Under the pieces are notes generated by a model. It was not told the origin of the DNA, made no database searches, and saw nothing but the letters and a program-made list of their open reading frames with translations. A stretch of 63,311 bases of DNA, filler included, from Gemmatimonadota bacterium (GTDB taxonomy: Bacteria; 4572-55; J002), in NCBI GenBank assembly GCA_003697105.1. It is 7 parts of 7 records of this genome, joined end to end, with 100 filler letters (N's around TTAATTAATTAA, not from the genome) between each part and the next. Parts side by side here need not be neighbours in the genome. Positions count along the whole stretch, not along the records: positions 28,225 to 43,964 come from RFFQ01000061.1; 6 more parts are not named here. One strand, written 5' to 3'. A program made the position numbers and the translations under genes. Below are positions 24,771 through 41,303 of the stretch, one piece after another. Each line of letters starts with the position of its first letter. Positions within the stretch are counted from its first letter, which is position 1.

Positions 24771-25936
24771 CAGTTCTCCGGGAAATCGAGTACTTTACGA
24801 ATAAATTGTTGATTAATATCTATCGATTTGATGCTGTTCACAATTTTCGGTGCCGCCTGACCGTTGCCAAATTTGAAAGTCATCTTTGTTAATGATTTTC
24901 GAAATTCAACATCTTGTGCTTTATGGATTCCAGACATGATTGACGGCACACTGTAATCGGTGTCGATGATACTCAGATGCCGCAACCGGCCTTGCTGACG
25001 GTCACCGATGTTAACCGTAGGTATACGGAAAAAGGGAACTTCTAAAATACCACTTGATGAATTACCGATAACAAATAAACAATGGGGAATCAAGCTATGG
25101 TAGCGTAAAACACCTAGGGAATCGAAGTAGTGATAATGGTCGTTTTTAGCAACATTTTCCTTGATTAGTCGAAGTAATTTATCTCGATTGACTTCAATAT
25201 TGGGAGCCGTAACAACCACTTGAAACTTAAAATGGCTTAACGCTTCAAATAGGTTCGAAATTTGTTTTTCAGGAGGCACTTCAAATTCTAGCGTAACAGG
25301 ATGATATGTCAGTAGGACGGTTTGTTGATCGGGGTTTAATCCTAAATTTTCATATAGATCGCTTTTGGGTATTTTTTTAAGGTTGACGATATTATCGATT
25401 CCAAGGGCACCGGTTATGATAATCCGATTCGCAGGCTCACCCATTCGGCGCACATTCTGGGCATATTCCTCACATGCCACAAAATGAAGATGGGAGGCTT
25501 TTGTCACCATGTGCCGAATCTGTTCATCAATGACCCCCTCGGTTTTTTCTCCTCCATTAATGTGAAAAATGGGTTTTTTGAATAAAATAGCAGTCGTAAC
25601 AATTGGTAATAACTCATAACGGTCACCTAAAATACAGATGGCATCAAAGGAATAGTGCTGAAATAGATGTGCTAATTCAATCGAGGCAACTCCCATTGAT
25701 CGAGAAAGTGAAAAACTTGTATTTTCATTCAATAGATAATCAAAAGTGTCAGTGACAGGATATTTCTGTTCCTGAATTTCAGTTAAGGTATACCCGTGTT
25801 CAACTGCCAGATGTGTTCCTCCCACAAACAATAAGTAACGGAGGTCTGGGTCAGCATTGATCGCTTGTAAAAGAGGTAAAAATAGTCCAAATTCCGCCCG
25901 TGTCGTTGTAAAAATAGCGATAGTACGTTGTGTCAT
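24770..25936 (-). CDS. neuC: Hydrolysing NDP-HexNAc 2-epimerase (NeuC/LegG-like)
   Basis: TTRAEFG, LGDRYE, DEQIRHMVTK, TYHPVT, GNSSSG and NIGDRQQGR. Confidence 0.9.
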   Translation of the reverse strand: MTQRTIAIFTTTRAEFGLFLPLLQAINADPDLRYLLFVGGTHLAVEHGYTLTEIQEQKYPVTDTFDYLLNENTSFSLSRSMGVASIELAHLFQHYSFDAICILGDRYELLPIVTTAILFKKPIFHINGGEKTEGVIDEQIRHMVTKASHLHFVACEEYAQNVRRMGEPANRIIITGALGIDNIVNLKKIPKSDLYENLGLNPDQQTVLLTYHPVTLEFEVPPEKQISNLFEALSHFKFQVVVTAPNIEVNRDKLLRLIKENVAKNDHYHYFDSLGVLRYHSLIPHCLFVIGNSSSGILEVPFFRIPTVNIGDRQQGRLRHLSIIDTDYSVPSIMSGIHKAQDVEFRKSLTKMTFKFGNGQAAPKIVNSIKSIDINQQFIRKVLDFPEN

Positions 25937-26168
25937 AAAATACTACCAACCTGAAGTCTCCAAACAACTCCATAACGCACTGATAAAAAAGATATTATAA
26001 AATTATAACGAAATATAGGGTTTACAACTTGACGGGAAAACATTCTGAAATCCAGTAACCGTCTATGTTTTCGGCGATCGTATCTTGAGATATTTCAAGA
26101 CAAATTAGAAGTCAAAAACCCTAGATTCCGTCTCATTTTCCAGACTTCTGCAGAGACTTCAGCATTTT

Positions 26169-26798
26169 TCATTGTAAGCCTCTTGCAGGGATTCCGAGAT
26201 AAGTGCCGGCACATAACAGATCCGTGGTGACAACCGAACCGGCTCCGACAACACACCCTGAACAGATTTTTTTGTATTGAATTACGGTAGCTCCGGTACC
26301 GATTAAACAATCATCCTCAATGGTCACGCCTCCACTGAGCGTCACGCCTGGGGCAACATGGACAAAATTTCCCACCTGGCAGTCATGATCAATGGATGAA
26401 CGGGTATTCACGATCGAAAAACACCCAATACGAGACCCCGAATTTACGACTACGCCATCCATGACCACCGTGCCGGCGCCGATATGAACATCTTCGTTAA
26501 TAATGGCTGTTGGCGATATAACCGCTGGAAACACATAACCGATTTTGATCGCTTTATCACGCAATCGACGCCTTAATTCTGCTGTTTTTAGCTGGCCGAT
26601 TCCCAAAGTAGCCAGGTTCGTACCTCGAGCAAACTGTCCCGGTAAAACATCATCGGTCCCTAAATAGGGTACACCTAAAATAACACCGTGATTTACGGTA
26701 TCCACGTAACCGACAACCTGATACTCTCTGATTTTATTCAATAGGGAAATCACGACTTTCGCATGACCTCCCCCGCCAATAACGAGTATTCTAGGCAT
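26169..26798 (-). CDS. NeuD/PglD-family hexapeptide-repeat acetyltransferase
   Basis: IGGGGHAKVV, IDHDC, left-handed beta-helix repeats and GIPAR. Confidence 0.9.
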   Translation of the reverse strand: MPRILVIGGGGHAKVVISLLNKIREYQVVGYVDTVNHGVILGVPYLGTDDVLPGQFARGTNLATLGIGQLKTAELRRRLRDKAIKIGYVFPAVISPTAIINEDVHIGAGTVVMDGVVVNSGSRIGCFSIVNTRSSIDHDCQVGNFVHVAPGVTLSGGVTIEDDCLIGTGATVIQYKKICSGCVVGAGSVVTTDLLCAGTYLGIPARGLQ

Positions 26799-27945
26799 GT
26801 TTCAACACCGATACCACATACGCCACATCATTGGGAGTTAAATCCACCGAACAGGGAAGATTCAAGGTTTTTTCCCATAAGGCCCAAGCGGTCTCAATTT
26901 GATACGACTGGCAATGGCGGTACGGCTTTTGGCGATGATTCAAATACCAGACTGGCCGGGCTTGAACCCCTTTGGCGGCTAAAAATGCCATCAATTGTTC
27001 GCGATCCTTGCCATAAATATCTTTATCAATTTGAAGACAATAAAACCAATAATTGGAACAAGCATAATTCGGTGTTTCGGCAATATGTAACCCGCGAATG
27101 TGCTCGATTTCCTGTTGATACCGTTTGTAATTTCGGGTTTTAATCTCAATATATTCTGCTAATTTTTCCAATTGTGCCACGCCCATCGCTGCCTGAATAT
27201 TGGTGAGTCTGAAATTATAACCCACCTCATGGTGAATATACCGCACGGGATCATCTTTTGCCTGAGTGGTTAAGTAGCGTGCTTTTTGGGCAACGGCTTC
27301 GTTGGAAGTGACGATCATTCCCCCTCCACCGGTGGTAATGATCTTATTACCATTAAAGGAATAGCACCCGACATCTCCAATTGTTCCCGTATACTGTCCG
27401 TTCAAGTTCCCTTGTGTATAATATGTTCCTAAACTCTCGGTGGCATCCTCGACGATTTTAATATTCCGCTCTTGGCAGATCGGAACCAGCGATTCTAAAT
27501 CCACTGCATTTCCGTAGATATGAACCGGAATAATGGCTGAAATCCGTTTCCCACTGGTTTTATTATAACTGAAACCCTCTCGAAAAACCGTTTCGTTCTG
27601 GATAAATTGAATGGTTTTCTCAACATCAATATTGTAAAACGCATCGGCATCCATAAAAATTGGATTTGCATTTAAATAGCGAATGGTATTGACCGGCGCA
27701 ATAAACGTGAGGGTCGGGACCATCACTTCGTCGTCTGCTTGAACACCCACCACCTGCAGCGCAACTTGAAGTGCCGCTGAGCCGTTGACACATGCTACGG
27801 CATAATCGGCACCGGTGACCCGGCAAATATCCTGTTCAAAGCGCTCGACGTACGCCCCCGCAGAGGAAACCCAACCGGTATCCAGACAGTCTTTGATATA
27901 CACCCATTCATTACCCCGAATGGAAGGAACAGATAAAGGGATCAT
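26791..27945 (-). CDS. legC: DegT/LegC-family PLP aminotransferase
   Basis: MIPLSVP...TGWVSSAGAYV, EDATESLG, SFNGNKIITTGGGG and GYNFRLTNIQAAMG. Confidence 0.8.
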   Translation of the reverse strand: MIPLSVPSIRGNEWVYIKDCLDTGWVSSAGAYVERFEQDICRVTGADYAVACVNGSAALQVALQVVGVQADDEVMVPTLTFIAPVNTIRYLNANPIFMDADAFYNIDVEKTIQFIQNETVFREGFSYNKTSGKRISAIIPVHIYGNAVDLESLVPICQERNIKIVEDATESLGTYYTQGNLNGQYTGTIGDVGCYSFNGNKIITTGGGGMIVTSNEAVAQKARYLTTQAKDDPVRYIHHEVGYNFRLTNIQAAMGVAQLEKLAEYIEIKTRNYKRYQQEIEHIRGLHIAETPNYACSNYWFYCLQIDKDIYGKDREQLMAFLAAKGVQARPVWYLNHRQKPYRHCQSYQIETAWALWEKTLNLPCSVDLTPNDVAYVVSVLKHA

Positions 27946-28124: not shown

Positions 28125-28224
28125 NNNNNNNNNNNNNNNNNNNNNNNNNNNNNNNNNNNNNNNNNNNNTTAATTAATTAANNNNNNNNNNNNNNNNNNNN
28201 NNNNNNNNNNNNNNNNNNNNNNNN
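28125..28224. other. Artificial contig linker
   Basis: N-run with TTAATTAATTAA. Confidence 0.98.
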
Positions 28225-28770
28225 TGTTGGAAATACGTTTCTGAATTATGAGGAGGGTATCTTTGATGGAGAGGGCAGTGCTTTACTCATCGCCTATAAC
28301 CATTTTATCCGAACAGCTACCGGCATATTTTACACTGAGGGTGGTCGTCCAACCTATATTTATCGCAATCACTTTGAATCTGAAGATACTGGAATTGAGG
28401 CTCATTTTAGCACTGTCGATGTGGTCGACAATTATTTGGTCAACTATCAAATAGAGGTGCAAAGTTTACAGAGAAAAGCTCACTATTACCTGTTCACTAT
28501 TCACTATCCAACTATCCCAATCCGTTTAATGCCGCAACAACGATCCAATATGAACTTCCCACCCCTTCTCATGTGTCTATTAATGTCTATGATGTAATGG
28601 GGCGACGAGTTACTACATTGGTCAATGAAAATAAAGAAGCAGGATTTCATACGGTGACATGGAACGGTCGAAACGATCAGCAGAAATTCGTCCCTTCCGG
28701 TATTTATATCTATCGTTTGGAGAATGAATCCGGTCTAAACCTGAGTAAACCAATGGTTTTGTTGAAATAA
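28225..28770 (+). pseudogene. C-terminal part of a secreted beta-helix protein with FlgD/T9SS-A-type CTD, frameshifted near 28435
   Basis: Frame from 28226 gives parallel beta-helix repeats (VGNTF..GIF, AYNHF..GIF, YRNHF..GIE, VDNY). The -1 frame continues GQLSNRGAK...NYPNPFNAATTIQYELP...PSGIYIYRL to TAA 28770. Confidence 0.65.
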
Positions 28771-28777
28771 ACTGGGA

Positions 28778-30286
28778 TCATTGATAGTTTAGGACATGAA
28801 TCTTCATTTTGCCAATGAGGGGCAGTAATTTCGGGTACTGGTCAAATTCACCTTCCAGCAATTTAAGATGGGTAGCATCGGCGATCATATCGCCGAACGT
28901 GGGGTCCATCGCCACCCATCGTGTGCCTGTCCAAACCTCGGGCCACGCATGGTAATAAAAGGCATTGTCCAAATAGACAACGCCGAGCGCAATTCGGGTC
29001 GGAATACCCACCGCCCGGGCAAGAGCGGTGAACAGCGTGGTGTGTTCGTTACAATCACCTTGCATTGTGCGGAGAACCTCAATTGCCGAAGGGATGCTCA
29101 TGGTGGGCACTTTTTCCACGTGTTTAAACACCCATTTTCCCAACCGATTTGCGGCAGACCAAGCCTGCGGATGGTCTTCTCCCAGAATCTGCCGGGCTAA
29201 ATGGCGAATGGTATCAGCATCGGCTTGAATGAAATCGGTCGGCATTAGCCACGAGTCCAACCCGTGGGTATCTAACGGAAGGCAAAGGCTATCATTTAGG
29301 TCAGGGCGGGTTTGGCTTATTTTCACCGTCACCGAACTATCTGTTCGGGCAAGGATCGTCTGCCGCTCTGTTTCCAGTAAAAATTGAGACCAATCAACCC
29401 CTTTTGAAACCAACCGGAGTGTCACTGAGCGAGTAAAGCGGGAATCGGGAATGAGGCGGCTCACCGGAATAGACACATCCACCAACAAATCACTGGTAGT
29501 CGCTACAATTTCCGGTGGCGGGGCTATTTTCATCGCCGCTTCTTTGCTTTCCCGCAACATGACCAAGCCTAGCAAGGTTTCTTCCCGTTTGACACTCTGT
29601 CCGGTAGGGTCAATCCAGGTGTAAGAATCCATGCCATTCAGGGTCATGCGGATTTTAGTGGCATAAATGGTCTCTCCCAGGACGGTTAAAAGTGTCCGTT
29701 CAACCAATTCGACTTCCACGGGAGCGGTTTTCTGCGACAGCGGATCAAACATATCAAAGGTGTAGGTTTTACCGGGTTTTAGATCGAGATTGGGCACCAT
29801 GTGTTCAAAAGCCAGTGGCATCGTAAATTTCCCTTTAATGGGAATATGCCGTTGGCTGTGTTGTCCGGCGGCATTGATGTCCAGCCGCAACATCTTTTCG
29901 CTAACATGACCCTCAAACTCCATCGTTTGACCGGCGGAAACCACTGTCATGGAAAAGTCAAGGGGGCGAAAATCCGGGCGAGTGTTGATGTAGCCTTCAA
30001 TGCGGGTATCAAGGAGGTGTTGCATTACCGGTAACCGCATGAACCAATTTTGCTCAAAGCGATAATTTCCATCCGGCAAAATATAAGTCGATGAACCGAC
30101 AAAACCGATTTTGACTCCATCTTTGTAAACCCCCATCCACTCTTCGCGGGCTTCTAGTTGTGCGATCACGTTTTGGATATCCAGACGTTCATGTTTACCG
30201 CTATAAAATCGCTGGAGCAGCATCCCGATCAATACCAGCCAGATCAGGATGAACAGAACGTTGAGGAGTTTAAACGCCAGTTTCAT
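28778..30286 (-). CDS. Membrane-anchored transglutaminase-like protein
   Basis: N-terminal TM helix; Cys-His-Asp triad in GDCNEHT, YYHAWPEV and MDPT. Confidence 0.85.
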   Translation of the reverse strand: MKLAFKLLNVLFILIWLVLIGMLLQRFYSGKHERLDIQNVIAQLEAREEWMGVYKDGVKIGFVGSSTYILPDGNYRFEQNWFMRLPVMQHLLDTRIEGYINTRPDFRPLDFSMTVVSAGQTMEFEGHVSEKMLRLDINAAGQHSQRHIPIKGKFTMPLAFEHMVPNLDLKPGKTYTFDMFDPLSQKTAPVEVELVERTLLTVLGETIYATKIRMTLNGMDSYTWIDPTGQSVKREETLLGLVMLRESKEAAMKIAPPPEIVATTSDLLVDVSIPVSRLIPDSRFTRSVTLRLVSKGVDWSQFLLETERQTILARTDSSVTVKISQTRPDLNDSLCLPLDTHGLDSWLMPTDFIQADADTIRHLARQILGEDHPQAWSAANRLGKWVFKHVEKVPTMSIPSAIEVLRTMQGDCNEHTTLFTALARAVGIPTRIALGVVYLDNAFYYHAWPEVWTGTRWVAMDPTFGDMIADATHLKLLEGEFDQYPKLLPLIGKMKIHVLNYQ

Positions 30287-30290
30287 GAGC

Positions 30291-30713
30291 TTATGGTTCG
30301 ACTAGGGTACAACTAAATTCAACGCTGGCAACACGCTTTCCGGCTACCCGAACAGTGCCTTTCATAAAGTAAGCACCGCCGATGGTTTCGACCAGCTCGA
30401 CCGTCATTTCCATCGTATCCCCCGGGCGAAGAAACCGTTTAAACTTGGCATTTTGGAGCCGGGTCAGGGCGGGGATTCCTGCTTTTTGATCCGGCAAGGC
30501 TTTTTTGAGGAAAATCGCACCGGATTGAGCAACTGCCTCGCAAATTAATACGCCGGGCATGATCGGATTACCGGGCATGTGACCCTTAAAGAAAGGTTCA
30601 TCCTGCCGCAAGGTGCGCCGGGTGCGGATCGAATTCCCGGTCAGTTCAACAATTTCATCCACAAATAGAAACGGTTCGCGCTGCGGGATGGCGTCGTAAA
30701 TATCGGTGTTCAC
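30291..30713 (-). CDS. fabZ: FabZ-family 3-hydroxyacyl-ACP dehydratase
   Basis: IPQREPFLFVD and FFKGHMPGNPIMPGVLICEAVAQ (catalytic His/Glu). Confidence 0.88.
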   Translation of the reverse strand: MNTDIYDAIPQREPFLFVDEIVELTGNSIRTRRTLRQDEPFFKGHMPGNPIMPGVLICEAVAQSGAIFLKKALPDQKAGIPALTRLQNAKFKRFLRPGDTMEMTVELVETIGGAYFMKGTVRVAGKRVASVEFSCTLVEP

Positions 30714-30744
30714 AGGTTATCCTCACTTAATAGAGTGAATAATA

Positions 30745-31485
30745 TCAAAGCCCACCGGTAATCTCTAAGACCGTACCAGTGATGTAACTCGCCTCTTGAG
30801 AGGCTAAAAAGAGTACACCCGCGGCAATTTCCGCCGGTGTACCGAATCGTTTCAGCGGGACTTGGTTTTTATATAATTTTTTTTGTTCCGTGGAAAGATC
30901 GGCAATCAATTCAGTCTCAACAAAGCCTGGAGAGACACAATTGACCGTGATGTTGCGCTTGGCAACTTCCTTAGCAAGGGACTTGGTTAAGGCAACCTGC
31001 CCCGCTTTGGAAGCGGCATAATTCGCTTGTCCCGCAAAACCATGCTCGCCAGAAGGCGACGTAATATTAATAATCCGCCCGTAGCGATGTTTCATCATCG
31101 CCTGCACCGCAAATTTACACATGTGATAGGTACCGGTCAAATTGGTGTCGATGACCTGTTGCCATTGTTCTGGGGGCATCATGGCGAGCACCGCATCTTG
31201 ACGAATACCGGCATTGTTAATGCAGATATGAATTTGGTTATACTCGGTTTCGATTTTTTCAAAGAAGCTTTTGACGCTTTTGTAGTGGGTAATATCAAAA
31301 TTATGTAAATTTAGATTATCAGCTTGACTCCCCTGCGCTGCTTTGAACGCTGTTGCCGCCGCGTGATTGCGGGCGTAGGTTGCCAATACCGTCGCACCGG
31401 CACTTAAAAACGCGGCCGTGATGGCGCCCCCAATCCCGCGCGTACCGCCGGTGACAATAACAACTTGATCCGTAAAATTGAACAT
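30745..31485 (-). CDS. fabG: 3-oxoacyl-ACP reductase
   Basis: TGGTRGIG, NNAGI, YAASK and VSPGFVET. Confidence 0.9.
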   Translation of the reverse strand: MFNFTDQVVIVTGGTRGIGGAITAAFLSAGATVLATYARNHAAATAFKAAQGSQADNLNLHNFDITHYKSVKSFFEKIETEYNQIHICINNAGIRQDAVLAMMPPEQWQQVIDTNLTGTYHMCKFAVQAMMKHRYGRIINITSPSGEHGFAGQANYAASKAGQVALTKSLAKEVAKRNITVNCVSPGFVETELIADLSTEQKKLYKNQVPLKRFGTPAEIAAGVLFLASQEASYITGTVLEITGGL

Positions 31486-31532
31486 AACTGATCCTTTAGA
31501 TTAAAATGGAAGGGATATACCGATAGACACCC

Positions 31533-32936
31533 CTACGCGCGAAGATATTTATCGACGTTATTACTGGTGATCACCCCGTAGTTGATCGCCCCCAACCAGC
31601 CAGACATGATGATCGCCACCGAACCGGCATGATATAAGCCGGGCACTTGTTCCGGCAAACCCTGACTGATTTTAAGCCCTTCAAACTTAGTACCAAAAGA
31701 GGTTCCCGCGGGGTGAAGGGTATAGTGCTTAAAGGTACAGGGTGTGGAGGCTTCGAGGTGGTCCACTTTGGCACGAATATCCGGCAAATACTTCTCCAGA
31801 CAATTTAGCGTATCTTCAATCAGATGGTCTTTTGCCTGTTGATATTCCGCTTTGCTAAGCCGGTTCCAATCGTCAAAACGGGCGTTGGTGGACGAGACAA
31901 TCGAAAACTTTCCCGACCGAAGGGTATCATAATAGACCGAAAATGTCCGGCTGGTGACCTTCATATCCAGCATAGCATCCGTGTTATATTCTGGAGCCGT
32001 GGAAGTGAAAATCAAGTCGCCAATGTATGGAATAGATTCGCCTTGCCGGATACCAATATACACCTGACAGGAGCTGGTATTAACCCGTACCTTGCGGGCT
32101 TCTTCAATAAAATCAGGCGAAAAATATTCCTCTCCGGTGAGCTTAAAAATGGTGGATAACACGTTGGCGTTGGAGAGTACCGCTTTGCATTTAATAACCC
32201 GTCCATTTGCCGCAATACCGGCCACTTTACCCCCCTCTACAATCACTCGTTCCACCCGAACATTTTTCCGCAGGTCAACCCCGTTGGATTTGAGCACCTT
32301 GACCATCTCTCCGATAAGCTGATCCGTGCCATAATCAAAGGTAAATACCCCTTTATTCATAAAATTGGAAAAGACAATTCCGTACGATATAGCGGGATCG
32401 TCCAGTGTTGAGCCGTTGGCATAGGTGATCGGCTCCATCAGCAATCGCCAGACATCCGTACGTCCGGGGAAAAATTGTTGGAATAACTCGCGCGTGGTCA
32501 TTTGCTGGTCATCATAAAAATTCATGCTCCGGGCGGTATCAAAAAAATTTTCGACCGTTTGGGGGTCTATCCCAAATTTATCAACCATAATCCGGGAGAA
32601 GTCTTTCCGATCAAACGTCGTTTCCAGTTTGAATTGCGGGTTATCAAAAATCACACCTTTCAGTTGATGAATATGACTGGCAATCTCCTTCGTCCAATAT
32701 TTCCGGCACGATTTGACCATCCCATACGGGAATCCGTGCAAGGAAATATCAAAAATATGCCCACCCTTACGGTGAAACCACGTCGCTAAACCACCAAATT
32801 GGTAATGATGCTCCAATAAGAGGACACTATGCCCGGCTTTCGCTAAAATATTAGCAGAAGTCAAGCCTCCAAGCCCACTACCGATGACCACCACGTCATA
32901 ATAATCCTTTGCACCTTTTAAAAAATCTTTTGCCAT
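31533..32936 (-). CDS. CrtI/phytoene-dehydrogenase-superfamily FAD oxidoreductase (B)
   Basis: [10 protein letters not shown]...[21 protein letters not shown] and GLYHAGS...GWLGAINYG. Confidence 0.8.
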
Positions 32937-32950
32937 TCGTGAATTCCTTT

Positions 32951-32986
32951 GAGTTTTACGAGTTTTACGAGTTTTATGAGTTTAGA
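32951..32986. repeat. 9-bp tandem repeat (GAGTTTTAC) x~4
   Basis: GAGTTTTAC GAGTTTTAC GAGTTTTAT GAGTTTAGA, just upstream of the RBS of the second flavoprotein gene. Confidence 0.8.
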
Positions 32987-33005
32987 AGTTTGATGCGTTT
33001 GGGAG

Positions 33006-34397
33006 TTATTGTAGTACATGCAAATTTGCCATAGAGATACCACTAAGCATTGCGCCGACAATACCCAAAAAGCCTTGATCCGTCCCAATGATAAAGAGAT
33101 TCTTAAAAGGTGTTCGACCGTCTTTGACCTTATCGGGGGCACCATAAACCGCTCCGTTGATATGACCCGTATACCGCTGGATGGTTAGCGGAGTGAATGC
33201 ATCTGTATAAATAACATGGTCACGAAAAGGAGGGATCAGTTGCTCTACCGCGTCGATCATCTGGCGGATGACCCGCTCTTTGGCGGCATAATAAGCTTCT
33301 GAATCTGATTGAAGTGATTGCCACACCTCAAAATTGGAGATACAGGTTAATCGTAGCAAATTATCCTTTAAGGGACGGTCATACTGGTAATTATTGGGCG
33401 AACAAATCACCCCACTTTTAACATCTACTAAACCCTCGGCTTTGCGATACCGGAATTGTTCCCCCAAATTATAAAAGGTAATCGTTGCGTCATGTCCCCA
33501 ATCCGCCGGAGGTTGGTCTAGCACAAAAATCGTCTCGATAAATGTCATTACTCCGGCATTGGATTGAGGGTTCGTCACCGGCAAGGGGTCGATCAACGCC
33601 AATGTTTCATAATAACCGGCGGAGGAAAGAATTTTATCCGCGGTTAATATCTCACCATCTTCAAGTTCAACAGCTTGGATCCGGTCATCGGTGCATTTTA
33701 AAGATCGAACTCCGGCACGCATCCGCATTTCACCACCCTGTTTCCGATACTGGCGGACAAGCGCACTCGTTATTTGCCGGACACCCTGCCACGGCCGTGC
33801 AAATCCTTCATTAAAAATACTTTTGAACATGATTACAAACTGCCCGAATTCCATATCATCTTCTATTGCGCTGCCATAGTACATTAGCGGGCAAAAAAGC
33901 ATATCGATCAATAGCGGATTGGATAAATAGCGGGATACGATGTTCCGTGCCGATACCGGTTTGCGTTGTAGGTTTAGTTCGTCATAACTTAAAATTATGT
34001 CAACTAAATTATGGAAACCTTCCATCTGATCCGGAAAGTGTAACCGTACCTGAGCCACCAATTCATCAAAATTATTGGTAAAGCGCAACCGGCAATTTGG
34101 AAAGAGAATCTCTGAATAATTCTGCTCCCGAAGATCAAACGCTTCATAAGGAAGTTTAAGTTGGCGCAACAGTTTATTCAACGGGGCACGGCGTGCGGTT
34201 TTGGGAACGAAATTCGTCATTGCGTGCAACCCCACATCAAACGAATAGCCATCTTTTGTGTAAAACGAATTAAGCCCGCCGTACATGTAATGCTTTTCCA
34301 GAATCAGGACGGTTTTATCGTAGTAGGCACAACGGACACCCGCCGCCAAACCAGACATCCCTGCCCCAATGATAATGACATCATAATGGTTTGCCAT
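33006..34397 (-). CDS. CrtI/phytoene-dehydrogenase-superfamily FAD oxidoreductase (A)
   Basis: IIIGAGMSGL...LEKH..YGG, FDVGLH, FTPLTIQRYT..NGAVYG and GIVGAMLSG. Confidence 0.8.
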   Translation of the reverse strand: MANHYDVIIIGAGMSGLAAGVRCAYYDKTVLILEKHYMYGGLNSFYTKDGYSFDVGLHAMTNFVPKTARRAPLNKLLRQLKLPYEAFDLREQNYSEILFPNCRLRFTNNFDELVAQVRLHFPDQMEGFHNLVDIILSYDELNLQRKPVSARNIVSRYLSNPLLIDMLFCPLMYYGSAIEDDMEFGQFVIMFKSIFNEGFARPWQGVRQITSALVRQYRKQGGEMRMRAGVRSLKCTDDRIQAVELEDGEILTADKILSSAGYYETLALIDPLPVTNPQSNAGVMTFIETIFVLDQPPADWGHDATITFYNLGEQFRYRKAEGLVDVKSGVICSPNNYQYDRPLKDNLLRLTCISNFEVWQSLQSDSEAYYAAKERVIRQMIDAVEQLIPPFRDHVIYTDAFTPLTIQRYTGHINGAVYGAPDKVKDGRTPFKNLFIIGTDQGFLGIVGAMLSGISMANLHVLQ

Positions 34398-35607
34398 CTC
34401 GGTCTCCCTTCGCTTCTGCCGATAAACGAGAATTCAAACCAAGTGCGGCGGCGCGTTTTTCCCATTGCTTGCGCGCAAGTGCTTGCATATCTTCAACTTC
34501 ATCCATTTCATCGACAATTTCCATACCAAGTAACGTTTCAACCACATCTTCTAAGGTCACCAACCCCTCCGTTCCCCCATATTCATTGATCACCAAAGCA
34601 ATATGCTGGCGTTGATCCAGCAAAAATTCCAACAAATTGGAGAGCCGCATCTCTGCTGGAACGGGTGGTAAATGCCGCTTCAAGTGAGCCAGCGGAATCT
34701 GATCCCGGTTTTGGACTTTTGCCAACAGCATATCCCGTTTTAGGACAAAACCGGTCATATCATCGATATGTTTGCCATAGACCAAAACTCGGGAAAATGG
34801 ATTTTCCGGATCGGCTGCCCATGCTTGCGCAACGGTTATATCCTCCTGAAAGGCATGAATTACCGTCCGCGGGGTCATAATATCTTTTGCCCTTATAAGA
34901 CCAAAGCGAAATAAATTAGAAATAATACGCGACTCATGTTCATGGATTTTACCCGTCTCCTTACCCATACCTGCCATAGCGAGAAATTCATCCCGGCTGA
35001 ACACCTGAACGGGGTCATTTCGGGAAATCCAGCGGGTGAGTCGCTCTGAAATCCAGATTAACGGGTACAATACCCAAATTAATCCTTGCACAAAATACGC
35101 TGTTGGACGCGCCAGCGCCCGCCAATAAACGGCACCTAACGTTTTGGGGATAATTTCAGATAAAAATAGAATGGCAAGCGTCATCAACGCTGAAAATAGG
35201 CCGAACCAAGCGTTACCAAACACGATGGTTGCTTTCGCTCCGGCACCGATAGCACCGACCGTATGAGCAATGGTGTTCAATGTTAGAATCGCCGCAAGAG
35301 AGCGGTCAACATTCGCCAGTTTTAACTGCTTCAGTTTTGCCGCCAAATGGGGTTGGTGAGTATCCAAACCGGCGATATAAGATGGGGTAATACTTAACAA
35401 CACCGCCTCTGAAACCGAACAGAGAAACGAAAAGATCAAGGCTAACAGAATGTAAAGAACCAACATCACAACATCCCAGCGGGTGTAATCTGCGGCATTA
35501 CCATCGCCCAGATTACCGGTACCCACAGCAAAAGTACTGCTGGCGATGATCACCCCCACCACGACAAACCATGCTTGGATCGAGTATTGCCTCACACTTA
35601 GCCTCAC
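34381..35607 (-). CDS. CNNM/DUF21 + CBS membrane protein (hemolysin/CorB-like)
   Basis: SFLCSVSEAVLLS, SEIIPKTLG, DIMTPR and EYGGTEGLVTLEDVVE; no CorC C-terminal domain. Confidence 0.88.
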   Translation of the reverse strand: MRLSVRQYSIQAWFVVVGVIIASSTFAVGTGNLGDGNAADYTRWDVVMLVLYILLALIFSFLCSVSEAVLLSITPSYIAGLDTHQPHLAAKLKQLKLANVDRSLAAILTLNTIAHTVGAIGAGAKATIVFGNAWFGLFSALMTLAILFLSEIIPKTLGAVYWRALARPTAYFVQGLIWVLYPLIWISERLTRWISRNDPVQVFSRDEFLAMAGMGKETGKIHEHESRIISNLFRFGLIRAKDIMTPRTVIHAFQEDITVAQAWAADPENPFSRVLVYGKHIDDMTGFVLKRDMLLAKVQNRDQIPLAHLKRHLPPVPAEMRLSNLLEFLLDQRQHIALVINEYGGTEGLVTLEDVVETLLGMEIVDEMDEVEDMQALARKQWEKRAAALGLNSRLSAEAKGDRDGKPL

Positions 35608-35641
35608 CGGTATAACGTGCTAAAAATCACAGCATAAATAA

Positions 35642-35683
35642 TGATTAAACCTTGCAAAGGTCAATTTCTGCAAGGTTTAATCA
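35642..35683. terminator. 15-bp stem-loop downstream of ACP
   Basis: TGATTAAACCTTGCA...TGCAAGGTTTAATCA. Confidence 0.65.
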
Positions 35684-35709
35684 AAAGTAGATCATATTGA
35701 GATGCCGGT

Positions 35710-35979
35710 TTACCGGTCACCTTCATAAGGAACATCTTTTAATTTATCATAAAGATATTCTGCACTGCTGTTTAGTGTTGCTAATTCCATGTAATCGTCC
35801 TCTGGAACTTCAATTTTATAGCGTTTCCGAAGTTCCATCACAATATCCAGAAAGTCCATAGAATCGAGGTCCATTTGCTCCCGCAGGCGCACATCCGGAT
35901 CGATATTACTTAAATCTTCGTCGGGGACAATATCCTCTACAATGTCTAGCACCAATTTTTTGATTTCCTCTTTACTCAT
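35710..35979 (-). CDS. Acyl carrier protein (cluster-dedicated)
   Basis: Acidic 89 aa with LDSMDFLDIVMEL phosphopantetheine serine motif. Confidence 0.92.
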   Translation of the reverse strand: MSKEEIKKLVLDIVEDIVPDEDLSNIDPDVRLREQMDLDSMDFLDIVMELRKRYKIEVPEDDYMELATLNSSAEYLYDKLKDVPYEGDR

Positions 35980-36038
35980 TACACCCTCTCTAAACTGAAA
36001 ATGATAAAGTAAATCGCCAGTATTTAGCGGTCATAAAA

Positions 36039-37295
36039 TTAGGTTTCGTCATACTTTTTGATAATTACCACCGAATTAATTCCCATCATTCCAAATGAGC
36101 TCGCCAAAATATAATTAACGTGCCCGATCTCTTTCGGTTCGTTCAGCACTAAATTAACACCTTCACAATTTGGGTCGAGGTCATCCACATTAATGGTCGG
36201 ATGAACAATTCCATCATCAAAGGAGGGCAGATTTCCCGCCAATTCCAGCGCACCGGCAGCACCCATCGCATGCCCAATATAGCTTTTTGTATTGTTAACA
36301 TAAGGGCGGCGATCCGGTGAAAAGATAGATCGAATCGCTTCACACTCCTGAATATCACCGGCGGTGGTGCCTGTAGCATGCGTATTAACAATATCGATCT
36401 GTTCGGGTTGAAGATGTGCTTTTTGGAGCGCCAATTTCATGCACTGGGCTTGCTGGATGGGATTTGGCAATACGGGATCGGTGGCATCCGAAGTGATTCC
36501 ATACCCGACGAGTTCACCGTAAATACGGGCACCTCGTGCTTTCGCATCGCGAAGGCGTTCTAACGTATAAACACAGCCGCCTTCCGAGATTACAATCCCA
36601 TTTCGATTCATGTCGAACGGGCGGCTTGCTTTTGCCGGGTCTGTATGTTTCGCTAAAGCACCTTGACTTTGAAAAGCGGCAAAAATACCAAAGGTATGGA
36701 TACTTTCGGAAATTCCTCCGGCGAGCGCGAGGTCAACTTCCCCCAACCGGAGCATTTGCACCCCTTGGATCAAGCCCATATTTCCGGCGGCACATGCCGC
36801 GCCGATGGTGTAGTGCGGTCCCGTGATGCCCATATTCAAAGTAACTTCGCCTGCCGGATTATTGGCAACTGTGCGGGGGTTGTGATGGTGTGTCCAGAAC
36901 CGGACATCATAATCATATTGAGACAAATTATAAACTTCATTCTCGGTTTCGACATTGCCGTGTTCGGTGATGCCCAAATAGACACCGATTCGAGCGGTAT
37001 CCAGCGTTCCGATATCCAATCCGGCATCCTTCATTGCCTCATGGGCACAATAAACCGCTACCGAACCCGCCCGTGTCCCTCGCCGGATTTCTTTTCGATT
37101 TTGATATTTGCGCGGGTCAAAATCACATACGCCAGCGATAGTTTTGCCAATGTACCGGATTTCGTATTCTTGGACACCGGAACGGCGTTCCAGCAAGCTC
37201 CGCCGGAATGTCGTTAAATCATTATTGGAACCGGGGGCGGTCAAGCCAACTCCGGTAATCACAATCCGTTGTATATCTGAATTCTTCTGTTCCAT
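36039..37295 (-). CDS. Beta-ketoacyl-ACP synthase (FabF/FabB-type KS)
   Basis: RIVITGVG; Cys-His-His triad in AACAAG, NTHATGT and KSYIGHAMGAAG. Confidence 0.9.
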   Translation of the reverse strand: MEQKNSDIQRIVITGVGLTAPGSNNDLTTFRRSLLERRSGVQEYEIRYIGKTIAGVCDFDPRKYQNRKEIRRGTRAGSVAVYCAHEAMKDAGLDIGTLDTARIGVYLGITEHGNVETENEVYNLSQYDYDVRFWTHHHNPRTVANNPAGEVTLNMGITGPHYTIGAACAAGNMGLIQGVQMLRLGEVDLALAGGISESIHTFGIFAAFQSQGALAKHTDPAKASRPFDMNRNGIVISEGGCVYTLERLRDAKARGARIYGELVGYGITSDATDPVLPNPIQQAQCMKLALQKAHLQPEQIDIVNTHATGTTAGDIQECEAIRSIFSPDRRPYVNNTKSYIGHAMGAAGALELAGNLPSFDDGIVHPTINVDDLDPNCEGVNLVLNEPKEIGHVNYILASSFGMMGINSVVIIKKYDET

Positions 37296-37388
37296 AAGCT
37301 ATTGAAAGTAGTCTAAAAAGGTTATTAGGTCTTTAAGTTCACTGGATTCAACATTTCAGTTACCCATTAATTGCAAAAATGCGGCGTT

Positions 37389-37417
37389 AATGTAATACGC
37401 CTACCGGTCTCTGGCAA
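37389..37417 (-). promoter_or_regulatory. Possible internal sigma70 promoter for KS-ACP genes
   Basis: Minus strand TTGCCA-17 nt-TACATT in the oleD-KS intergenic region. Confidence 0.5.
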
Positions 37418-37424
37418 CAGTTTT

Positions 37425-38420
37425 TCAACGGTGCTGCCGGTAGTAGGCGAATAAGCGGTCAAGCGCCGTTTGCGGGTCAATTTTTGGCGAAAAATGAAAG
37501 TCACGCCGGGCGGCGGCGGTATTAAAATAGTGGGATTTTGCAAGTTGGGAGGCTAAAAAGCGGGTCATTTTAGGCTCTGATGAAATGCCAAACATGCGGT
37601 ATATCCCTTCCATTATCTGCCCGATCCGGTAAGCTGTTGGATAGGAAATTGTCCGCTTAATGGGTGGTAAATCTAAATTTTTTAACACATTTGCGATCCA
37701 GTCCCACAGGTTAACAGGGGTATCATCATTGATAAAATAACACTTCCCCGCCACCGCAGAACCCGGGTATAAGGCGTCCGCCGCTTGCAGATGTCCTTCT
37801 GCCACATTTTCCACGTAAGCAATACTGACCTGATTGGTGCCATCACCAACTTGCACCAATTGATTACGTTTTGCACGCTGAATCAAGCGCGGGATCAAAT
37901 GATTATCGCGTGGACCCCAAATTAAATGTGGGCGCAGAGATACCGTCGCCAGCCCATGCTGCCCGTTCGCGGCGATCACAGCTTGTTCCGCAAGCGCTTT
38001 TGTATGGGGATAATGAGCCAGATAACAAGCTGGGTAGGGCAAGGATTCATCACCGTTTATAATGTCATCATCACCAAAAACAACCGAAGGTGAACTGGTA
38101 TATATCAGTTTGGAGACCCCGTTCTGCCAGCATCCCTCAATAACGTTTTGAGTACCCGTGACGTTGATCGAATAGAACGTATCCCATTTACCCCACACTC
38201 CCGGTAGTGCGGCGGCATGAAAGACACAATCCATACCTTGGCACGCCGCCATAACGGCGTCACGCTGACGAATATCCGCCTGAAACGTTTCCACCCCGAG
38301 GCGTTCAAGTTCAGGATACGCCCCTCGACTCAAAGAGCGAACCTGCCATCCCCGGCTTAAACAGCCTTCCACAAGGTAGCGACCCAAAAATCCGCCGCCG
38401 CCGGTAACTAAAACATTCAT
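37425..38420 (-). CDS. oleD: OleD-like 2-alkyl-3-oxoalkanoate reductase (3beta-HSD/extended SDR)
   Basis: TGGGGFLG, YTSSPSVVF, HYPHTKALAEQ, LRPHLIWGPRDNHLIP; next to an OleC-like gene. Confidence 0.78.
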   Translation of the reverse strand: MNVLVTGGGGFLGRYLVEGCLSRGWQVRSLSRGAYPELERLGVETFQADIRQRDAVMAACQGMDCVFHAAALPGVWGKWDTFYSINVTGTQNVIEGCWQNGVSKLIYTSSPSVVFGDDDIINGDESLPYPACYLAHYPHTKALAEQAVIAANGQHGLATVSLRPHLIWGPRDNHLIPRLIQRAKRNQLVQVGDGTNQVSIAYVENVAEGHLQAADALYPGSAVAGKCYFINDDTPVNLWDWIANVLKNLDLPPIKRTISYPTAYRIGQIMEGIYRMFGISSEPKMTRFLASQLAKSHYFNTAAARRDFHFSPKIDPQTALDRLFAYYRQHR

Positions 38421-38453
38421 GTGCGGGTCACTCCTCTGTCTCGCATCCTGAAC

Positions 38454-38807
38454 TCATTCCTCACCACCGCCATACGCGGGCTCTATGATGGCACTCATCG
38501 AGCCTTTACAGCGGGGAATCCACGGATCGGGACCATAAGCGTGGATTTGGTCACGTTTCAGTTCGGCTCGCTCTTTGGTAGTGGTATCCACAATTACCCG
38601 TCCGGTATCGTCCACTTCGCACGCCATCAAATACGCCAGTTCGGCACTATGTCCGAAAATATCCATCAGCATCACGATCACATACTCATACGTATGATCG
38701 TCATCGTCCAGCAACACCACATGGTACGGTGGGATTTGGCTTAGATCGGGACGGCGGGGCTCAATCTTCGGTTGGGTAATTTCGATGGGTTCGATAGTAG
38801 TTGGCAT
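38454..38807 (-). CDS. clpS: ATP-dependent Clp protease adaptor ClpS family
   Basis: PPYHVVLLDDDDHTYEYVIVML...GRVIV...ERAELKRDQI; start set at MPTTIEP. Confidence 0.8.
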   Translation of the reverse strand: MPTTIEPIEITQPKIEPRRPDLSQIPPYHVVLLDDDDHTYEYVIVMLMDIFGHSAELAYLMACEVDDTGRVIVDTTTKERAELKRDQIHAYGPDPWIPRCKGSMSAIIEPAYGGGEE

Positions 38808-38818
38808 GATCGTATGAT

Positions 38819-40483
38819 TTACGCTGCCACGTGTTGGGCAGCCCAAAGGGCAAGTTTTTCACGAAAAATTTTGGCGTTATGCCGGATATCTGTTGGGAAA
38901 ACACCGGGATAAATTAAAACGGTTTTGATCGATTTTGTCAACGGATTCGCCGCCGCCATCTTCTGTATGTCGTCAACCAGTTGGGTATCGCTGATATTGC
39001 GGGTGCTTTCCTTTTGCTTTTCAATCAGGATTACCGGTTGTTGGTTTGGGCGTTCGCCAACCCCCACTAAAGCGGAACGAAATACGGCAGGATGGTCATT
39101 AAAAATGCCTTCGCACGGAACGGTAAACAGGGTTCCACTGGCGGTAATTACGCGATGGCTCTTCCGGCCGCAATACCAAATTCGACCCAGCTCGTCAAAA
39201 TAGCCCACATCGCCGATGCGATGCCGGATCGTACCCTGAGCGTCATAAATTTTTGCCAACCGGGTATGGTCTGGGCGTTGATAATAAGCGGGCGTCACTA
39301 TATCGCCTTTGATGACGATTTCCCCGATAGTTCCGGGCGGCACACAAAGCGACCCATTCCACGTTTCAATGGGTTCATCACTAATGCGGATAATCTTCAC
39401 CTCAACATCTGGGAAGGGCATCCCGACGCATGTTCCAGCACCACGTTTGGTTTTTTCCGCCGTTTCGGTCACAACCTGACTCCCCGCAATTGAGGCGACC
39501 GGTAAGGCTTCTGTGGCGCCATACGCCGTATGTGTATCCGCCGCCGGGGTTAAAATATGCCGGTAAAAGCGCTCCAAAATATCCGGACGAACCGGCGCGC
39601 CGAACATCAAAATCCGTTTGAGAGAAGGCAATTTTATCTGATGGTCCACACTATATTTCCCGACACGATCCCAGATGGCAGGTGAGCCTGCCGCGGAGGT
39701 AATCCCTAAATTTTCAATCGTTTCTACGATTTTATGCGGGTCCACCTCTGCCGGACGGGTCGGGTCCATATCGGGAATAACACACGTCATACCCATTGCC
39801 ACATCAAATAGGGCAAATAGCGGGAATCCGGCAAGGTCGAGTTCACCTTCCTTAATCTGGTAAAAATCTCGGATATAGCGCACTTGGGCGTCAAAAATAC
39901 CGTGGGTGAACATCACGCCCTTCGGTGGACCGGTTGAACCGGTAGTAAAAATGATCGCGGCGAGGTCATCCGCCTGTGTCTCCGCTAACGGGAACTCTGG
40001 ACACGATGTCGGGCGGATCGAATCCAATGTGATCCCCGGTAGAATCCCCTTTTTACCGACAATCACCGCTTGTTTAACGGTCTGAAATGGTTTCCGGTAG
40101 ATCAATTTTGCCACATGGGCACGTGGTATGCCGATTAAGGCGTCCGGCTGTACCTCCGCCACACAATTGAGCAGATTATCTTTACCCATACCCGGGTCAA
40201 TCAAGACCGGCACCGTCCCCATTTTGAATAACGCAAATGTGAGGGCAATAAACTCTAAACTTGGCGTCACAGCCAGCAGGACTTTTGTCCCCCGTGAAAT
40301 TCCAATGGAATGCAATCCGTGACAGTAGCGGTCACACTCTTGATTCAATTGCCGGTAGGTCAGGTGAGTATATGCAACCCGTCCGGTATGATCGCGCCCT
40401 TCCGGGAAGACAACGGCTCGCTGGTAAGGTAATTTTTGCGCCATTTCCGGCAGATATTTCGCAATGTTACATAATGTCGGCAT
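38819..40483 (-). CDS. oleC: OleC-like beta-lactone synthetase (ANL adenylate-forming enzyme)
   Basis: CNIA, VPVLIDPGMG, IFTTGSTGPPKGV, FPLFALF, IPDMDPTRPA, YGATEALPV, WYCGRKSHRV and DIRHNAKIFREKL. Confidence 0.85.
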   Translation of the reverse strand: MPTLCNIAKYLPEMAQKLPYQRAVVFPEGRDHTGRVAYTHLTYRQLNQECDRYCHGLHSIGISRGTKVLLAVTPSLEFIALTFALFKMGTVPVLIDPGMGKDNLLNCVAEVQPDALIGIPRAHVAKLIYRKPFQTVKQAVIVGKKGILPGITLDSIRPTSCPEFPLAETQADDLAAIIFTTGSTGPPKGVMFTHGIFDAQVRYIRDFYQIKEGELDLAGFPLFALFDVAMGMTCVIPDMDPTRPAEVDPHKIVETIENLGITSAAGSPAIWDRVGKYSVDHQIKLPSLKRILMFGAPVRPDILERFYRHILTPAADTHTAYGATEALPVASIAGSQVVTETAEKTKRGAGTCVGMPFPDVEVKIIRISDEPIETWNGSLCVPPGTIGEIVIKGDIVTPAYYQRPDHTRLAKIYDAQGTIRHRIGDVGYFDELGRIWYCGRKSHRVITASGTLFTVPCEGIFNDHPAVFRSALVGVGERPNQQPVILIEKQKESTRNISDTQLVDDIQKMAAANPLTKSIKTVLIYPGVFPTDIRHNAKIFREKLALWAAQHVAA

Positions 40484-40706
40484 GCACGGCTCAGATTAAA
40501 AGTGGGAGTATAAATCAATTGTTCCGCGATAATAACATAGATGGAGATCAACGTCAATACCTTTCCTAACCCGTTGATATAGAATACATTAAAAGAAAGA
40601 TGAGAAAACGTTAAATTTTTAAGTTGACGGATGATCTTTTTTCGGGTACAATGTTCACCGGAGGTAAAATTTTGCCACCTCATCATTTATTTTCGGGAAA
40701 AGAGCC

Positions 40707-41285
40707 ATGGCAGACCTGACCGATCTACCGCATTTAATCCAGTTACTTGATGATGAATCCCCGCAGATTCGGAAAGCGGTCCTGGAAGCGCTCCACGATT
40801 TGGGTAGCCAATTAGATATCGAGCTTGAAAAAAAACCCGAATTGCTCAATCCGGTTCAGCGGGAACATTTGCAGAATGTGCTAGCACATCTAAAAGACCC
40901 TCCCCTCCCCAACATCCGGTTTGCTCCGGAAGTATCTAAAGAGATCACAAAATTTCAAATTGGAGAGATGGTGAAACATAAACGATACGGTTATCGAGGG
41001 GTTATTGTAGATTATGACCGCATCTGTCAGGCGGATGAAATCTGGTATTATGGAAATCGGTACCAGCCCCGCCGGAACCAGCCTTGGTACCATATTTTGG
41101 TACACCAATCAAACCAAACCACGTATGCCGCGCAGAGCAGTTTAACATGGGATACGTCCCTCCAACAGATTCAACATCCGCTACTCCGGTATTTTTTCCA
41201 CCATTTTGAAAATGGGCGTTACGAACGCAACAACGAACCGTGGCCCTATCGCTGGAATATTTCCAAAAATGATCAAAATACCTGA
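40707..41285 (+). CDS. HspQ/YccV-like domain protein with N-terminal HEAT-like helical segment
   Basis: KFQIGEMVKHKRYGYRGVIVDYD...QPWYHILV..TTYAAQSSL..IQHP; N-terminal LIQLLDDESPQIRKAV. Confidence 0.8.
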   Translation: MADLTDLPHLIQLLDDESPQIRKAVLEALHDLGSQLDIELEKKPELLNPVQREHLQNVLAHLKDPPLPNIRFAPEVSKEITKFQIGEMVKHKRYGYRGVIVDYDRICQADEIWYYGNRYQPRRNQPWYHILVHQSNQTTYAAQSSLTWDTSLQQIQHPLLRYFFHHFENGRYERNNEPWPYRWNISKNDQNT

Positions 41286-41303
41286 GTCATTCAGCCGCAT
41301 TCT

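Follow-up and report, generated by a model that had tools for sequence, protein, structure and literature searches.

A conserved pair of CrtI-superfamily flavoproteins in type II acyl-chain synthesis clusters associated with olefin (ole) genes in Gemmatimonadota and other bacterial phyla

Introduction

The C31:9 hydrocarbon of Shewanella requires Pfa, and the chain condensed by OleA in this organism is predicted to be 16:4n-3 (Shulse and Allen, 2011, PMC3098273; Allemann et al., 2019, PMC6463001). The occurrence of ole genes together with olefins, "especially nonaenes," has been described for Proteobacteria, Planctomycetes, Chloroflexi, and Verrucomicrobia (PMC7158056). In addition, Rattray et al. 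(2009, PMC2649909) reported "phytoene dehydrogenase"-like genes in the type II fatty acid synthesis (FASII) clusters of Kuenenia and Desulfotalea psychrophila and proposed that the encoded flavoproteins add double bonds. The present study deals with a related gene cluster in a DNA stretch of 63,311 nucleotides from a Gemmatimonadota bacterium (GenBank assembly GCA_003697105.1), which is referred to in its full length as the window. Two flavin adenine dinucleotide (FAD) proteins of the CrtI/CrtISO superfamily, the paralogues A (33006-34397, minus strand, 463 aa) and B (31533-32936, minus strand, 467 aa), are encoded there among genes of acyl-chain synthesis. Judging from gene content and phylogenetic distribution, A and B probably set double bonds in chains which are joined by the Ole pathway, a route proposed since 2009.

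The clusters described in 2009 offer the most direct comparison. For D. psychrophila, that paper gives C31:8 and C31:9 hydrocarbons and no pfa route (PMC2649909). The products of DP1860, DP2405, and DP2406 in this organism and of Kuste3336 and Kuste3607 in Kuenenia are, like A and B, amine-oxidase-family flavoproteins encoded inside fatty acid synthesis clusters. According to the locus tags, DP2405 and DP2406 form an adjacent pair as do A and B in the window, and both pairs are likely orthologous. Unlike the clusters of 2009, the window is devoid of radical SAM genes. No tie between the phytoene dehydrogenase-like genes and oleABCD is drawn in the available part of the 2009 paper, and a published link between ole genes and phytoene desaturase-like genes was not found in the literature searched either. 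Kuste3336 and Kuste3607 failed to replace CrtI for lycopene formation in Escherichia coli (Javidpour et al., 2016, PMC4790861), and a review from 2026 still gives the phytoene dehydrogenase-like enzyme as proposed (PMC13459092). The respective genes of anammox and sulfate-reducing bacteria have stayed unexplained since 2009.

The Pfa-OleABCD system of Shewanella oneidensis, which yields the C31:9 hydrocarbon hentriacontanonaene, resembles the gene module around A and B in having a dedicated acyl supplier that is genomically tied to ole and often lies within about 12 kb of oleA. Nevertheless, Pfa is a multidomain megasynthase featuring a FabA-like dehydratase/isomerase domain, whereas the A/B module comprises separate small type II proteins, among which no such domain was found and two CrtI-superfamily flavoproteins occur instead. 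The routes relying on FabA/FabB, FabM, or FabX, the latter being a flavoenzyme, share the oxygen-independent logic of an isomerase combined with a beta-ketoacyl-acyl carrier protein (ACP) synthase (KS) that accepts the isomerised intermediate, but the folds involved are unrelated to those of A and B. Furthermore, these routes serve housekeeping membrane lipids via the general ACP, whereas the A/B module features its own ACP, is present in only 18-21% of the Planctomycetota and Verrucomicrobiota genomes sampled, and follows ole genes in its distribution. CrtI and CrtISO/CrtH have the FAD Rossmann fold, the family PF01593, and a conserved C-terminal FAD motif in common with A and B. The latter differ from them by scores far below the model cut-offs, an acyl-ACP rather than isoprenoid context, their strict pairing, and their occasional fusion.

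A Conserved Module Around Flavoproteins A and B

The window consists of seven joined contigs separated by six artificial linkers without strand (N44-TTAATTAATTAA-N44; 11808-11907, 20270-20369, 28125-28224, 43965-44064, 53164-53263, and 58234-58333), and for this reason the gene neighbourhood of A and B is meaningful only within the 15.7 kb piece from 28225 to 43964, to which the cluster is confined and which is bordered by the third linker at its low and the fourth at its high end. For comparison with other genomes, a scan for A with one genome per species revealed 434 confirmed places. All counts of loci given here refer to the best 80 of them, were obtained by tblastn with the window proteins, and include only loci with enough flanking sequence in the denominators. 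These loci originate from Planctomycetota, Opitutales, Nitrospinota, Dehalococcoidia/Chloroflexota, a metagenome-assembled genome (MAG) of Bacteriovoracaceae (Bdellovibrionota), and a deltaproteobacterial MAG.

In 67 of 78 loci, the gene immediately upstream of A encodes an ACP, and a FabF-like KS is encoded within 1.5 kb upstream of A in 59 of 72. Gene B follows downstream of A in 38 of 75 loci, being adjacent in 29. It is in turn followed by FabZ in 29 and by FabG in nine of 30 loci, and a FabI-like short-chain dehydrogenase/reductase, scoring 160-182 bits on FabI models with cut-offs near 300-440, comes after FabZ in 23 of 28. The KS and B proteins are 56-70% identical across phyla, and the order in the window (KS, ACP, a CNNM gene, A, B, FabG, FabZ) agrees with that of the related loci. 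A and B are part of a module conserved in several phyla, which reads KS-ACP-A and then B-(FabG)-FabZ-FabI-like and also occurs in lineages annotated as Dehalococcoidia, Thermodesulfobacteriota, and gut Thermoguttaceae. The same counts favour the role on acyl-ACP rather than on carotenoids that the initial annotation of this DNA had proposed for both flavoproteins, and the homologues share KS, ACP, and FabZ neighbours instead of lying mostly in crt operons. Likewise, its remark that crtB and crtE are missing nearby was borne out, "nearby" comprising 15.7 kb only; neither a phytoene synthase nor a polyprenyl synthase family was detected in any scanned open reading frame (ORF) of the window, all pieces included. 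The placement of A and B between ACP and fabG was correct as to the flanking genes, with the CNNM/CBS gene between ACP and A having gone unmentioned.

Both flavoprotein genes are real ORFs on the minus strand, and their description as divergent paralogues is confirmed by an identity of 21% over approximately 430 residues (E 1e-23). The Rossmann motif GxGxxG and the C-terminal CrtI signature TPxT, which had been recognized before, are present in both proteins (TPLT at residues 402-405 of A, TPCT at 397-400 of B) and do not vary among the 20 A-type and 22 B-type sequences aligned. The Pfam family Amino_oxidase (PF01593) is matched with 49.7 bits by A and 53.7 bits by B, above the cut-off of 19.8, and FAD Rossmann families match too. 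The NCBIfam models for carotenoid isomerase, CrtD, and CrtI reach 60-99 bits vs. cut-offs of 238-640. The top NCBIfam match for both is TIGR02730 (CrtISO/CrtH) with 98.6 bits for A and 94.4 bits for B (cut-off 586.9), and the CrtI model TIGR02734 gives 60.2 and 76.1 bits, respectively, both below its cut-off of 238.1. The nearest solved structures are those of CrtI (4dgk) and of a gamma-carotene desaturase (4rep), matched with E values of 1e-9 or weaker. Relatives of A number more than 8000, are typically 461 aa long and about 58% identical, and are mostly unnamed or annotated as "phytoene dehydrogenase-like." Orthologues of B are 56-67% identical across four phyla. Two of the B orthologues (L080, 11416-12822; G478:C10:62240-63643) contain an internal stop codon, one of them a TAA, and may represent pseudogenes or sequencing errors.

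Pairing and Natural Fusion of A and B

Exactly one A and one strong B match were found in each of five genomes reached via the loci, with both genes lying far apart in two of these genomes. Among 151 Planctomycetota genomes, B is present in 27 and A in 28, i.e., in the same 27 and one further genome with a partial A. Among 121 Verrucomicrobiota genomes, A and B occur in the identical 26. Moreover, a search for longer proteins yielded four candidates, of which two, P0241 (988 aa) and P0243 (1020 aa), are natural A-B fusions in gene order. In the N-terminal half, they share 47 and 44% identity with A, respectively. The C-terminal half of P0241 shows 58% identity to B in direct comparison; P0243, whose C-terminal half can be aligned with the one of P0241, reaches 55% over 99% of B according to the search table. 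As the identity of 62% between P0241 and P0243 extends through a conserved Pro/Ala-rich linker, the fusion is inherited and not an accident of assembly. The one-to-one co-occurrence and the fusions lend support to the earlier suggestion that A and B are possibly heteromeric. In addition, the fusions are good candidates for expression, as a single polypeptide would carry both proposed activities.

The remaining two longer proteins are of a different kind. P0244 (950 aa), comprising B and a FabI-like part, was discarded as a fusion since its middle 200 residues match no FabZ and it looks like a read-through. P0242 combines B with an unrelated galactokinase domain. A particular distribution was encountered in a MAG of 7.4 Mb labelled Candidatus Kuenenia stuttgartiensis (G001), which features one A after KS-ACP and one lone B. 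This assembly (loci L019, L090, L104-L111) further possesses an OleA above the cut-off and six additional amine-oxidase-family genes, in whose short loci no KS, ACP, or FabZ was found. As genome size and OleA are unexpected for Kuenenia, this bin may be mixed or mislabelled. In L090 and L091, the lone B genes are preceded by small ORFs, which matched no Pfam family and showed no similarity to each other.

Linkage of the Module to Olefin Genes

The connection to the Ole pathway, which had been overlooked in the initial annotation, is the main clue to the function of A and B. In the window, the gene row itself begins with an OleC-like and an OleD-like gene followed by KS-ACP. Locus L047 reads KS-ACP-A-OleA-OleB-OleC-OleD, which is a canonical oleABCD row joined to the module. 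With 343.8 bits, the OleA of this locus passes the NF006720 cut-off of 285, and the OleB resembles haloalkane dehalogenases. The OleC and OleD of L047 reach 416.8 and 348.2 bits on the Ole models and remain, like the genes in the window, below the curated cut-offs. Since the OleC of a canonical row scores even lower than the OleC-like protein of the window, the OleC cut-offs seem to be clade-specific. Opitutales loci finish with FabZ-FabI-like-OleA-OleB, Dehalococcoidia loci open with OleA-KS-ACP-A-B, and several Planctomycetota loci feature OleC-OleD upstream and OleA downstream on the other strand. OleA-like genes above the NF006720 cut-off were also found in L002, L004, and L026. At least one ole gene is present in 25 of the 80 loci and in 12 of the 34 loci with full flanks of 10 kb.

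Likewise, OleA and B were found to co-occur at the level of genomes. NF006720 gave no match in any of 14 control genomes containing FabH and is thus not a generic FabH model, and it exceeded the cut-off in all ten genomes reached via related loci (G001-G006, G277-G280). Among the 151 Planctomycetota genomes, 55 are OleA-positive (53 over the cut-off), including all 27 with B; in one of these 27, OleA is cut off at a contig end, and in 13 of them OleA lies within 16 kb of B. The 121 Verrucomicrobiota genomes comprise 26 with OleA over the cut-off, 25 of which possess B, and 25 of the 26 with B possess OleA; the single B-bearing genome lacking it measures 1.7 Mb and has its B cut by a contig end. 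In 151 Chloroflexota genomes, OleA exceeds the cut-off in ten and B is present in one, which has OleA as well. The occurrence of Ole without the module in this phylum is as expected for olefins derived from ordinary fatty acids. Of 101 Nitrospinota genomes (G006, G431-G530), 84 harbour B and 79 OleA; both are present in 74, B only in ten, OleA only in five, and neither in 12. Module and Ole hence look near-universal in Nitrospinota, a phylum whose hydrocarbons are, to our knowledge, undescribed. Together, the four phylum samples show OleA in 127 of 138 B-bearing genomes. The association of B and OleA has Fisher p values from 2e-6 to 1e-23, which overstate independence, as the tests ignore kinship and genome completeness is not reported.

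A role of the module in housekeeping synthesis of unsaturated fatty acids was considered as well and rejected, given that B occurs in just 27 of 151 Planctomycetota and 26 of 121 Verrucomicrobiota genomes and that the module has its own ACP and tracks ole genes.

Mutual Exclusion of the Module and Pfa

PfaA (TIGR02813) was found in 28 of the 151 Planctomycetota genomes, two of which have no OleA. Of the 55 OleA-positive genomes of this phylum, 27 carry B but lack PfaA, 26 carry PfaA but lack B, two have neither, and none has both; in one of the two genomes with neither, the OleA match is weak. At least 12 of the PfaA-bearing Planctomycetota genomes have OleA and pfaA at a distance of no more than 12 kb. 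In Verrucomicrobiota, B is missing from a single OleA-positive genome, in which a full pfaA is located 7 kb away from oleA. No PfaA was detected in five additional genomes with the module, one of them from a Gimesia sp., and OleA is present in the three of them that were checked for it. On NF006720, the OleA proteins of Planctomycetota score 391-488 bits in genomes with PfaA (23 of 26 at 433 or more) and 390-448 bits in genomes with B, which suggests two putative OleA clades matching the two suppliers, Pfa and the A/B module. The module in the window does not correspond to a Pfa-type megasynthase, its proteins being separate and its dehydratase of the FabZ type, and its KS scores 81.9 bits on TIGR02813, far under the cut-off of 1010.

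For C31:9-producing bacteria without Pfa, no source of the polyunsaturated precursor has been known so far. Planctomyces maris and an Opitutaceae strain reportedly make C31:9.

The Gene Row in the Window

All genes of the row are located on the minus strand and are separated by small or negative intergenic gaps, the order being OleC-like, ClpS, OleD-like, KS, ACP, CNNM, A, B, FabG, FabZ, and transglutaminase-like. The OleC-like gene (38819-40483, PF00501) encodes a homologue of acyl-AMP ligases and beta-lactone synthetases. Its product scores 688.5 bits on PRK09274 of NCBIfam (cut-off 478) and 573.7 and 563.4 bits on the OleC models (cut-offs 900 and 850), i.e., over the full length and below the curated scores, and is 41-50% identical to the module-adjacent OleC-like proteins of L006, L013, L044, L071, and L047. 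The OleD-like reductase of the 3-beta-hydroxysteroid dehydrogenase family (37425-38420, PF01073) likewise aligns with the OleD models over the full length and below the curated score (372.1 and 344.3 bits, cut-off 580), and is 43-56% identical to module-adjacent OleD-like proteins in 14 loci, some of which are cut by contig ends. The FabF-like KS (36039-37295; PF00109, PF02801) possesses the Cys (AACAAG), His306 (HATGT), and His342 (KSYIGH) motifs and shares 62-70% identity with the KS proteins encoded upstream of A in other phyla. It is followed by the dedicated ACP (35710-35979, PF00550), whose serine motif DSM comprises residues 39-41. Downstream of A and B, a FabG-type 3-oxoacyl-ACP reductase (30745-31485; PF13561, PF00106) scores 285.8 bits on TIGR01830 (cut-off 297.75) and 250.5 bits on NF009466 (cut-off 222), and a FabZ-type 3-hydroxyacyl-ACP dehydratase (30291-30713, PF07977) reaches 117.5 bits on the FabZ model NF000582, above the cut-off of 113. 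Neither an OleA-type thiolase nor an OleB-type hydrolase was found among the scanned ORFs of the window, and tblastn with OleA and OleB of L047 as queries gave no match in the window, in which the contig of the cluster has 15.7 kb.

Proposed Function and Alternative Explanations

Based on gene order, conservation, and distribution, we infer a product, an ACP-bound substrate, and a reaction type for the module. It appears rather probable that A and B are an obligate FAD pair of a type II acyl-chain synthase which supplies the Ole pathway in place of Pfa, and that they set double bonds on ACP-bound intermediates. The cluster in the window is best seen as a further instance of a widespread putative Ole-linked flavoenzyme acyl synthase, which would correspond to the Pfa-Ole system in type II form. 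Accordingly worded as a scheme, KS, dedicated ACP, A, B, FabG, FabZ, and usually the FabI-like protein would produce an unsaturated, probably polyunsaturated, acyl chain, which would be condensed by OleA and converted to a long polyunsaturated hydrocarbon by OleD, OleC, and OleB. KS, FabG, FabZ, and the FabI-like protein would carry out ordinary elongation; as A and B are the sole other conserved catalysts of the module, they would decide where double bonds stay. A private set of KS, ACP, dehydratase, and reductase would be needed only for unusual intermediates that have to be elongated and kept from the housekeeping reductase, which argues for double-bond chemistry during elongation and not on a finished chain.

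As to the reaction itself, we prefer to regard A and B as flavin-dependent double-bond isomerases or dehydrogenase-isomerases whose substrates are the ACP-bound enoyl intermediates of elongation. The CrtI/CrtISO superfamily includes flavin-dependent cis-trans isomerases. A methylene-interrupted chain such as 16:4n-3 needs two steps on trans-2-enoyl intermediates, one in which the double bond is moved to cis-3 and one in which it is flipped to cis-2, and one flavoprotein might perform the former and the other the latter. The most specific form of this proposal, in which A and B are redox-neutral enoyl-ACP isomerases with reduced flavin in a dissociated, oxygen-independent polyunsaturated fatty acid (PUFA) synthase feeding hydrocarbon synthesis, is put forward tentatively and is rather unlikely as a whole.

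An oxidative desaturation of acyl-ACP or of the finished olefin is a serious rival, even if unlikely in our view. In this case, A and B would act as CrtI-type desaturases on the finished acyl-ACP or on the Ole-made hydrocarbon and hand over the electrons to an acceptor such as quinone. Rattray et al. (2009, PMC2649909) originally proposed such a desaturation, which agrees with the membership of both proteins in the CrtI superfamily, and the Ole link and the exclusion of Pfa fit it equally well; besides, the Ole hydrocarbon, a long chain whose central double bond is cis, is similar to phytoene. Nevertheless, an action after chain synthesis would presumably not need a private set of KS, ACP, FabZ, and FabI-like proteins, and the immediate neighbourhood of A to the preceding ACP gene (67 of 78 loci) and of B to the following FabZ speaks against this reading as well. 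Oxygen cannot be the general acceptor, as the module is found in lineages assigned by annotation to Dehalococcoidia, Thermodesulfobacteriota, and gut Thermoguttaceae. Moreover, CrtI chemistry extends conjugation, whereas the C31:9 hydrocarbon known so far is methylene-interrupted (PMC6463001).

The first of two functions considered in the initial annotation, a flavin-dependent enoyl-ACP reductase providing a missing reductive step, is very improbable for A, B, or both. The contig shows no FabI-like gene, which would fit a saturase of the RetSat/CrtISO type, and saturases do exist in the CrtI superfamily. However, the contig ends approximately 2 kb past FabZ, so that a FabI-like gene may lie elsewhere and its absence is unproven, and the related loci contain one after FabZ in 23 of 28 cases. 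In addition, two flavoproteins conserved one-to-one would be redundant for a single reduction; along with the FabI-like gene of the module, this makes the reductase role unlikely. A module for saturated chains would not need to exclude Pfa either. The notion that A and B are ordinary carotenoid desaturases or isomerases which lie among lipid genes by chance deserves hardly any credence. It could invoke the matches to the carotenoid isomerase, CrtD, and CrtI models and to the structures 4dgk and 4rep, but these are weak, all carotenoid models remaining at 60-99 bits vs. cut-offs of 238-640; furthermore, no crt genes were found in the window and the KS/ACP synteny is conserved across phyla. The Kuenenia homologues of the fatty acid synthesis clusters, which may or may not be orthologous to A and B, gave no lycopene in E. 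coli (PMC4790861).

Several points weigh against the assignment of A and B to an Ole-linked synthase and, within it, to isomerases. The link to Ole in the organism of the window rests on OleC-like and OleD-like genes which score below the NCBI cut-offs, OleA and OleB being absent from the 15.7 kb contig. No match to a FabI-like gene was obtained in the window by tblastn, and B is not located beside A in about half of the loci. The co-occurrence counts are uncorrected for shared ancestry, and ten of the 84 B-bearing Nitrospinota and one of the 26 B-bearing Verrucomicrobiota genomes, all of unknown completeness, are without OleA. No biochemical or genetic test of any member of the module was found in the literature, and the orthology of A and B to DP2405/6 and Kuste3336/3607 of the 2009 paper is uncertain. 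Finally, the choice of isomerase over desaturase rests on reasoning and not on data, with the match to the carotenoid isomerase model being only slightly better than those to desaturase models and far below its cut-off.

The either/or pattern with Pfa, the strict pairing, and the fusions lead to a concrete experiment with few genes of soluble size. If A and B are acyl-ACP isomerases or desaturases, this would be new chemistry for the CrtI superfamily. As a claim of novelty, the earlier wording went too far, because acyl desaturation by phytoene dehydrogenase-like FASII proteins was already proposed in 2009 (PMC2649909). The module would then also provide a compact toolkit for oxygen-independent polyunsaturated lipids or hydrocarbons and a gene marker for polyunsaturated hydrocarbons in Nitrospinota and other marine groups. 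An isomerase-based PUFA synthase would represent a third polyunsaturated route beside oxygen-dependent desaturases and Pfa megasynthases, which would be widespread in Planctomycetota, Opitutales, and Nitrospinota.

Further Features of the Window

Three genes of the row seem to be local additions, as the ClpS-like, CNNM/CBS, and transglutaminase-like proteins have no tblastn match in the 80 related loci (criteria of the ClpS-like search: E 1e-8, 50% query coverage). The small ClpS-like gene (38454-38846, minus strand; PF02617, E 1.5e-16) lies between the OleC-like and OleD-like genes and overlaps the 3' end of the former by 28 nt. The gene of the CNNM/CBS membrane protein (34381-35607, minus strand; PF01595, PF00571) overlaps A by 17 nt. 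The transglutaminase-like protein (28778-30286, minus strand; PF01841) is encoded by the final gene of the row on the contig and is a doubtful member of it. Upstream of the OleC-like gene, the best sigma-70-like promoter match is found at 40529-40557 on the minus strand (TTGACG-17-TATTAT with TG, 10 of 12 positions), and a hairpin of 17 pairs with a T-rich tail follows just after the ACP gene (35642-35683, minus strand) as the top terminator-like site of the scan; both are consensus matches only. Possibly, this hairpin terminates transcription in part or stabilises the RNA and thereby adjusts how much KS and ACP are made compared with the proteins encoded downstream.

On the same contig, the aminotransferase ORF at 42392-43741 (plus strand, 449 aa from a TTG start) is over-extended, the identical database protein having 392 aa. 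The best named database matches of the aminotransferase belong to a mixture of phyla and were uninformative for a taxonomic placement. ORFs crossing a linker, e.g., 44013-45953, are partly artefacts, and the gene order across linkers is meaningless. The DegT, NeuB, and sulfotransferase genes below 28124 are located on another contig and are therefore no neighbours of the A/B cluster. A further contig encodes an FG-GAP/ASPIC protein with a type IX secretion sorting domain (8793-11771, minus strand), which, together with the polysaccharide loci mentioned next, hints at an organism of the FCB group. The polysaccharide loci at 12178-27945, also on other contigs, contain three sulfotransferase and two NeuB-family genes together with NeuC-, PglD-, and DegT-like genes and methyltransferases, which hints at a sulfated nonulosonic-acid glycan.

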